Assembly: GCF_003334815.1 (NCBI RefSeq)
Contig: NZ_QOWO01000076.1
DNA: 4,596 nucleotides
From: Escherichia coli
GTDB taxonomy: Bacteria > Pseudomonadota > Gammaproteobacteria > Enterobacterales > Enterobacteriaceae
Direction: 5' to 3' (one strand)
In this document: one piece after another, positions 2,955-3,164 of the stretch
How positions within the stretch are numbered: the stretch's first letter is position 1
Layout: each line of letters starts with the position of its first letter
Position numbers and translations under genes: made by a program
Notes under the pieces: generated by a model
Told to the model about the DNA's origin: nothing
Seen by the model: the letters and a program-made list of their open reading frames with translations, nothing else
Databases searched by the model: none

Positions 2955-3129
2955 TGAGCTGACCACACTCACGTGGGTGGACTGGTATAACAATCGACGA
3001 TTGCTGGAAAGGCAGGGCCATATCCCACCGGCAGAAGCAGAAAAAGCTTATTATGCTTCCATCGGAAACGATGATCTGGCAGCCTGAGTTCACAGATAAA
3101 ACACTCTCCAGGAAACCCGGGGCGGTTCA
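2955..3129 (+). mobile_element. 3' terminal fragment of an IS629/IS3411/IS1203-like (IS3 family) element: last ~44 codons of OrfB plus the right terminal inverted repeat
   Basis: Frame 1 translates to ...DELTTLTWVDWYNNRRLLERQGHIPPAEAEKAYYASIGNDDLAA* with the stop at 3085..3087, a typical IS3-family OrfB C-terminus. The following sequence GTTCACAGATAAAACACTCTCCAGGAAACCCGGGGCGGTTCA (3088..3129) matches my recollection of the IS629 right end (...CCCGGGGCGGTTCA). Homology starts near 2955; the 5' ~1.1 kb of the element is absent. Confidence 0.75.
2956..3087 (+). pseudogene. IS3-family transposase OrfB, C-terminal fragment only (IS629-like)
   Basis: This is the coding part of the IS629-like fragment, with the same translation as above. 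The frame is closed by TAA at 2935..2937 upstream and there is no start codon or DDE core, so it is a remnant. Confidence 0.7.
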
Positions 3130-3164
3130 CTTAGCCGCGTGTCCATTATTGCTGGATAAGATCA
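3127..3164 (-). repeat. Solo IS3-like left terminal inverted repeat (~37 bp), cut off on its inner side by the IS629-like end
   Basis: The plus strand reads CACTTAGCCGCGTGTCCATTATTGCTGGATAAGATCA, whose reverse complement TGATCTTATCCAGCAATAATGGACACGCGGCTAAGTG matches the IS3 IRL as I recall it. It is a direct repeat, 35 of 37 identical, of 4321..4357. The IS629-like ...GGTTCA terminus overlaps or abuts its inner end at 3127..3129. Confidence 0.7.

Follow-up and report, generated by a model that had tools for sequence, protein, structure and literature searches.

A probable three-level nest of insertion sequence remnants in the fec island of Escherichia coli

Introduction

The insertion sequence IS629 is reported to make target duplications of 3-4 bp and to sit in 'IS islands', and its target preference is not known (PMC3271280). 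With its transposase plus IEE, deletions beside the element have been reported, the smallest of a few nucleotides and the largest exceeding 40 kb (PMC9943667). In E. coli K-12, the fec region (KpLE2 phage-like element) has been described as a highly unstable, IS-rich and mobilisable island, with nine IS elements near fec and a context that varies from strain to strain (PMC4951805).

Here we analyse a stretch of 4,596 nucleotides from an E. coli genome (NCBI RefSeq assembly GCF_003334815.1, contig NZ_QOWO01000076.1), referred to as the window, which is a piece of a chromosomal island upstream of fecIRABCDE. The original prediction for this DNA was that the right end of an IS629-like element is butted against an IS3-like left inverted repeat, and alignments confirmed both assignments as well as the junction itself. 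We propose that the resulting scar, which lies between a phytase-like esterase gene and a YmgB/AriR-like gene, is very probably a non-functional three-level nest of IS remnants in an IS-rich island, arisen by ordered insertions and a deletion. Nested, truncated insertion sequences are a known kind of feature and are partly annotated here in RefSeq as pseudogenes, while our literature searches found no paper in which this junction is described.

Results

Genomic setting of the scar

In the O104:H4 counterpart of the window (locus L001), RefSeq annotates in order an IS66-type element, a DUF6404 fragment, the phytase-like esterase gene on the minus strand, a partial IS3 family transposase, a partial IS5/IS1182 transposase, a YmgB/AriR-family gene, more IS3-family fragments, ykiE and fecIRABCDE. 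The phytase-like gene occupies 1316-2689 of the window (minus strand), and its upstream region (2690-2952), seen in 2,257 genomes, provides the left-hand DNA of the scar.

Two observations concern the DNA to the left of the scar. The IS66-family tnpC (40-1077) carries an in-frame 153-bp deletion at 891-895 when compared to an ISEc8-type copy on a ColBM-type plasmid (L012); at the deletion point, the alignment blocks on either side overlap by 5 bp. The gene is probably inactive despite its RefSeq annotation as intact. Separately, an unannotated sequence of ~55 bp at 2880-2933 contains a small hairpin (GCGTTTAGGAAACGC). Its plasmid copies form an inverted pair at 87-90% identity (L010 2501-2554 and 4875-4922) that brackets a 2.4-kb unit with an IS110-family transposase, and matches at 80-90% occur in about 390 records; this sequence may be an end of a mobile unit not yet described, or its target.

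Three truncated elements meet within 400 bp

Positions 2956-3129 (plus strand, 174 bp) are the 3' end of an IS629/IS1203-type element; full-length copies match them at 96.0-98.9% identity (E about 1e-78 to 1e-85). The gapless 174-bp alignment reaches 98.9% with full-length copies on two plasmids (L008 and L012) and 96.0% with a copy in O111 (L005) that RefSeq annotates as 'IS3-like element IS1203 family'. As the L012 element is 1310 bp long (6981-8290), the window fragment corresponds to its nt 1137-1310. The last 43 OrfB codons plus stop take up 2956-3087, with 2 of the 43 residues differing from the L012 copy in translation, and are followed by the right inverted repeat, ending ...CCCGGGGCGGTTCA; RefSeq labels 2956-3129 a partial IS3 family transposase. 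IS629 homology stops at exactly 3129 (...GGGGCGGTTCA), and beyond this ...GGTTCA terminus three independent full-length copies (L005, L008 and L012) diverge at once into unrelated DNA. The fragment thus has its own IS629 terminal inverted repeat (5'-TGAACCGCCCCGGG... read inward), at which homology ends. It is not a complete element, which would comprise 1310 bp, both repeats, orfA/orfB with a programmed frameshift and a target duplication, and the window holds no further IS629 sequence besides nt 1137-1310; 2956-3129 is an IS629 remnant and no active copy. The terminus had been predicted correctly, while the start shifts from 2955 to 2956 and the length from ~175 to 174 bp.

The IS629 terminus is followed by a solo IS3-type left inverted repeat, of which the outer 35 bp are left (3130-3164, minus strand). 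In reverse orientation, 3127-3164 matches nt 1-38 of K-12 IS3 at 36 of 38 positions, with mismatches at 3146 and 3156, and this match is significant even against 28 Gb (E-value 2e-6 to 2e-7). The IS3-type terminus TGATC... falls at 3164, and the lost body of the element would have lain leftward. By direct reading of the sequence, the TCA at 3127-3129 is shared by the IS629 terminus and IS3 nt 38-36. It most likely belongs to IS629, because an independent insertion on a pO157-type plasmid, described below, puts the true insertion point after IS3 nt 35. The predicted ~37-bp IS3 repeat at 3127-3164 keeps its coordinates but consists of 35 unambiguous bp plus 3 bp that fit both elements. No exact copy of the IS3 repeat variant of this solo end was found among about 100,000 species representatives.

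A second IS3-like relic is located at 4004-4357 (minus strand, 84-89% to K-12 IS3), in which IS3 nt 1-238 is joined to nt 1134-1245. Here nt 239-1133 are gone and the right terminus has decayed; the relic and the solo left end are oriented alike. Over its first 38 nt the relic does not differ from IS3, yet its interior has diverged to 84-89%, so that 35 bp cannot tell IS3 from a relative. Together, the solo left end and the left end of the second relic (4320-4357) make up a 42-nt direct repeat, D1. On the far side of this relic (4358-4596), an 80-bp segment and, from 4428, a divergent IS1 (about 90% to IS1A) stand between it and ykiE/fecI. O104:H4 (L001) has neither; there the IS3-like left end is followed by other flank DNA, with ykiE about 36 bp further on.

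Three bases that are assigned to neither element (TAA, 3165-3167) separate the IS3-type terminus from a third remnant, which the original prediction had overlooked. This IS903-like (IS5 family) 3' remnant at 3168-3344 (plus strand) corresponds to IS903B nt 859-1057 at 76% nucleotide identity, and RefSeq labels it a partial IS5/IS1182 transposase. Besides a frameshift it shows two small internal deletions, and the terminal repeat (...TTCAACAAAGCC) ends at 3344; plasmid copies stop at this position and IS1 starts directly there. The terminal repeat (GGCTTTGTTGAA...) and the transposase C-terminus, which matches the IS903B protein (RVKQ..SL.LRDYDGQVAEAM), place the remnant in the IS903 group, while about 76% identity and two deletions set it apart from IS903B at the isoform level: it is a relative of IS903B, a different element. 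As the IS3-like end is embedded in the IS903-like end, the scar is a three-deep nest (IS629 in IS3-like in IS903-like). An exact-pattern scan for the IS3-end/IS903 junction returned 0 matches among about 100,000 species representatives, and no parent element or ancestral state outside E. coli was found in such species-representative scans.

The left breakpoint is an illegitimate join

The ColBM-type plasmid L012 carries the phytase-like gene with its upstream region in a diverged copy, which is homologous to the window as far as 2952. Past the equivalent of this position, L012 contains unrelated DNA with two small hypothetical genes, and this loss of homology identifies 2952 as the true breakpoint of the left-hand DNA. 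On the other side, the breakpoint inside IS629 at 2956 is common to all population forms of the scar, which indicates that the truncation is ancestral. The GAT between the two (2953-2955) matches neither the L012 continuation (ATT) nor IS629 nt 1134-1136 (GTG), and no microhomology was found at the join (2952-2955). The left breakpoint is thus an illegitimate join, and these same two features may fit more than one mechanism of truncation. Several 'adjacent deletions' had been predicted to have removed most of both elements. Deletion would still account for the loss, but one event would suffice, of at least about 3.2 kb once IS629 nt 1-1136 and the missing portions of IS3 and of the IS903-like element (its 5' part) are added up, and we found no evidence for several.

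L012 was itself considered as an ancestor of the window locus, having an intact IS629 in the same orientation 1.08 kb to the right of the breakpoint. This copy is flanked by its own AAC duplication and has another right flank; it is a separate insertion.

The junction is widespread in E. coli and occurs in three forms

The junction is present, in one form or another, in about 2,100 (39%) of 5,426 complete E. coli genomes, and it also occurs on IncF-type plasmids. The full form, as in the window, was found in 744 genomes. In about 451 others, including Nissle 1917 and JJ1886, the scar is intact through 3164 and the right flank is different, while in 909 genomes a deletion that directly abuts the IS629 terminus has taken out exactly 3130-3147 (18 bp). 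Recurrence at one chromosomal locus in all three sets demonstrates that the junction is real and no assembly artefact. The identities and coordinates of the remnants and this population spread were observed directly, as was the contrast of an intact IS629 terminus with a broken IS3.

The 18-bp deletion (L003 3995-4005; also L002) is likewise seen on many plasmids; it shows no microhomology, and IS629 is already truncated there. In Ec55 (L004 4032-4060) and Nissle 1917 (L013 3062-3090), the two copies examined among the about 451 genomes, 3165-4360 is missing. There, the flank of the second IS3-like relic directly adjoins the solo IS3-type end, and the YmgB/AriR-like gene has been lost along with the IS903 remnant. 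Also missing from the join is a CAA (3 bp) that would be kept by simple recombination between the two repeats.

An independent IS629 insertion at the same position of an IS3-type end

We constructed a synthetic query for the expected lost left junction, consisting of IS3 nt 60-33 and the IS629 left end. It recovered an independent case alone, on a pO157-type plasmid of E. coli O157 FDAARGOS_293 (NZ_CP022052.2, L014), and the ancestral form of the window locus was not among the matches. In this plasmid, an intact 1310-bp IS629 at 3528-4837 sits between nt 36 onward and nt 35-1 of an IS3-like sequence, with CTT on both sides; the insertion is present in a single record, and the reconstructed empty site in 533. 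This case establishes that IS629 does enter IS3-type left ends after nt 35 and duplicates CTT in doing so, and the window junction (...GGTTCA followed by CTTAGCC...) looks like one side of such an insertion. The pO157 case and the 533 empty sites lend support to the predicted insertion of IS629 ~37 bp inside IS3, with its position corrected to between nt 35 and 36.

Elsewhere, an unrelated chromosomal IS629 insertion by a Wadjet-adjacent gene (L015 3001-3044; compare L014 3501-3552) displays the same heptamer CTCACTT and CTT duplication. The shared left flank CTCACTT is a weak hint of a target motif, and comes from a biased search. Repeated use of one IS3-end site by IS629 is a small hint on target choice. 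It is conceivable, though doubtful, that IS629 prefers the nt-35 site (...CTCACTT) of IS3-type left ends and that the orphan right end can be cut by transposase supplied in trans; cutting of this kind would explain the 18-bp end-flush deletion in 909 genomes.

Alternative histories of the junction

IS629 could instead have inserted deeper in IS3 or beyond it, with an end-flush deletion subsequently reaching IS3 nt 35 and, in the 18-bp deletion form, later nt 17. The loss of exactly 3130-3147, flush against the IS629 terminus and with no microhomology in 909 genomes, indicates that such deletions happen here, so the nt-35 junction could be secondary. IS629-adjacent deletions of a few nucleotides to more than 40 kb, reported for transposase plus IEE (PMC9943667), fit the same scheme, and at an orphan right end transposase in trans or plain chance are possible causes. 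However, the pO157-type plasmid carries an independent, recent IS629 insertion at the identical IS3-like position with a clean CTT duplication, and an insertion at the same nucleotide makes a coincident deletion endpoint unlikely. We consider this history improbable.

A second alternative is that no deletion took place and that the phytase-like gene arrived as part of a mobile unit which interrupted IS629 at nt 1136/1137; this is very unlikely. The phytase-like gene does move among contexts, being found on chromosomes and on IncF/ColBM plasmids, and the ~55-bp repeat at 2880-2933 resembles an element end. However, this repeat faces away from the phytase gene, and the IS629 5' part is nowhere else in the window. 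Moreover, the DNA at 2934-2952 runs on into further sequence in L012, which implies that the left-hand DNA was itself cut at 2952.

That 2956-3164 is a single element with an unusually long terminal repeat, or resembles IS3 by chance, is scarcely credible: the 3-bp overlap and nothing more speaks for a single element, whereas all three full-length IS629-type copies stop at ...GGTTCA with unrelated flanks, so that 3127-3164 is not part of IS629, and the match of 36 of 38 positions to IS3 nt 1-38 stays significant even in 28 Gb.

Proposed order of events

In the nested history that we favour, an IS903-like element would first have been in place, and an IS3-type element would have inserted into it at about IS903 nt 858. 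An IS629/IS1203-type element would then have entered IS3 between nt 35 and 36, duplicating CTT (IS3 nt 33-35); IS629 is identified as the invader by its intact terminus, IS3 being the element that is broken at the junction. Finally, the upstream region of the phytase-like gene may have been brought up to IS629 nt 1137 by a single illegitimate deletion or join, in which IS629 nt 1-1136, the remaining IS3 and the IS903-like 5' part were lost. We found no genome in which either IS629 or IS3 is intact at the locus of the window, and the left-hand CTT copy is gone, both of which count against the insertion for the window copy; we infer the order of events and truncation by one deletion from the arrangement of the remnants.

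The scar appears to be inert

A search of the whole window against Rfam at a permissive threshold gave no match. Between 2600 and 3500, no promoter-like site was found, and a terminator scan yielded two weak hairpins, at about chance level. High sequence conservation of the scar is explained by the recent shared ancestry of the mobile island. On sequence evidence, we regard the scar as inert debris, with nothing that points to a function.

Discussion

The biological weight of the scar is small. What is mildly novel is the reuse of one IS3-end position by IS629, together with the deletion of 18 bp flush against an orphan IS629 end. The three forms (full, 18-bp deletion and 1.2-kb deletion) group about 2,100 genomes and offer a stable, easily typed marker of the fec island, which could help to trace the movement of the fec/phytase module between chromosomes and plasmids.

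The scar shares its genomic neighbourhood with the IS-rich fec flanks of E. coli K-12, whose description does not include the IS629/IS3/IS903 junction itself (PMC4951805). It also resembles the truncated IS629 copies of E. coli O157/O55, among which partial copies are common and often lie among other IS elements (PMC3271280). Those copies are located in EHEC prophages, the backbone and pO157, whereas the scar resides in the fec island, whose hosts include many non-EHEC lineages such as Nissle 1917, JJ1886 and O104:H4. The insertion on the pO157-type plasmid of FDAARGOS_293 matches the window in its invader, an IS629 with 96.6% identity over the shared 174 bp, in its target, an IS3-type left end entered after nt 35, and in its CTT duplication, which corresponds to the CTT at window 3130-3132. 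Unlike the window copy, that IS629 is complete, lies in the opposite orientation, retains both CTT copies and is private to one strain, and its IS3-like host is a different, diverged copy; in the window, by contrast, IS629 is reduced to 174 bp and IS3 to 35 bp.
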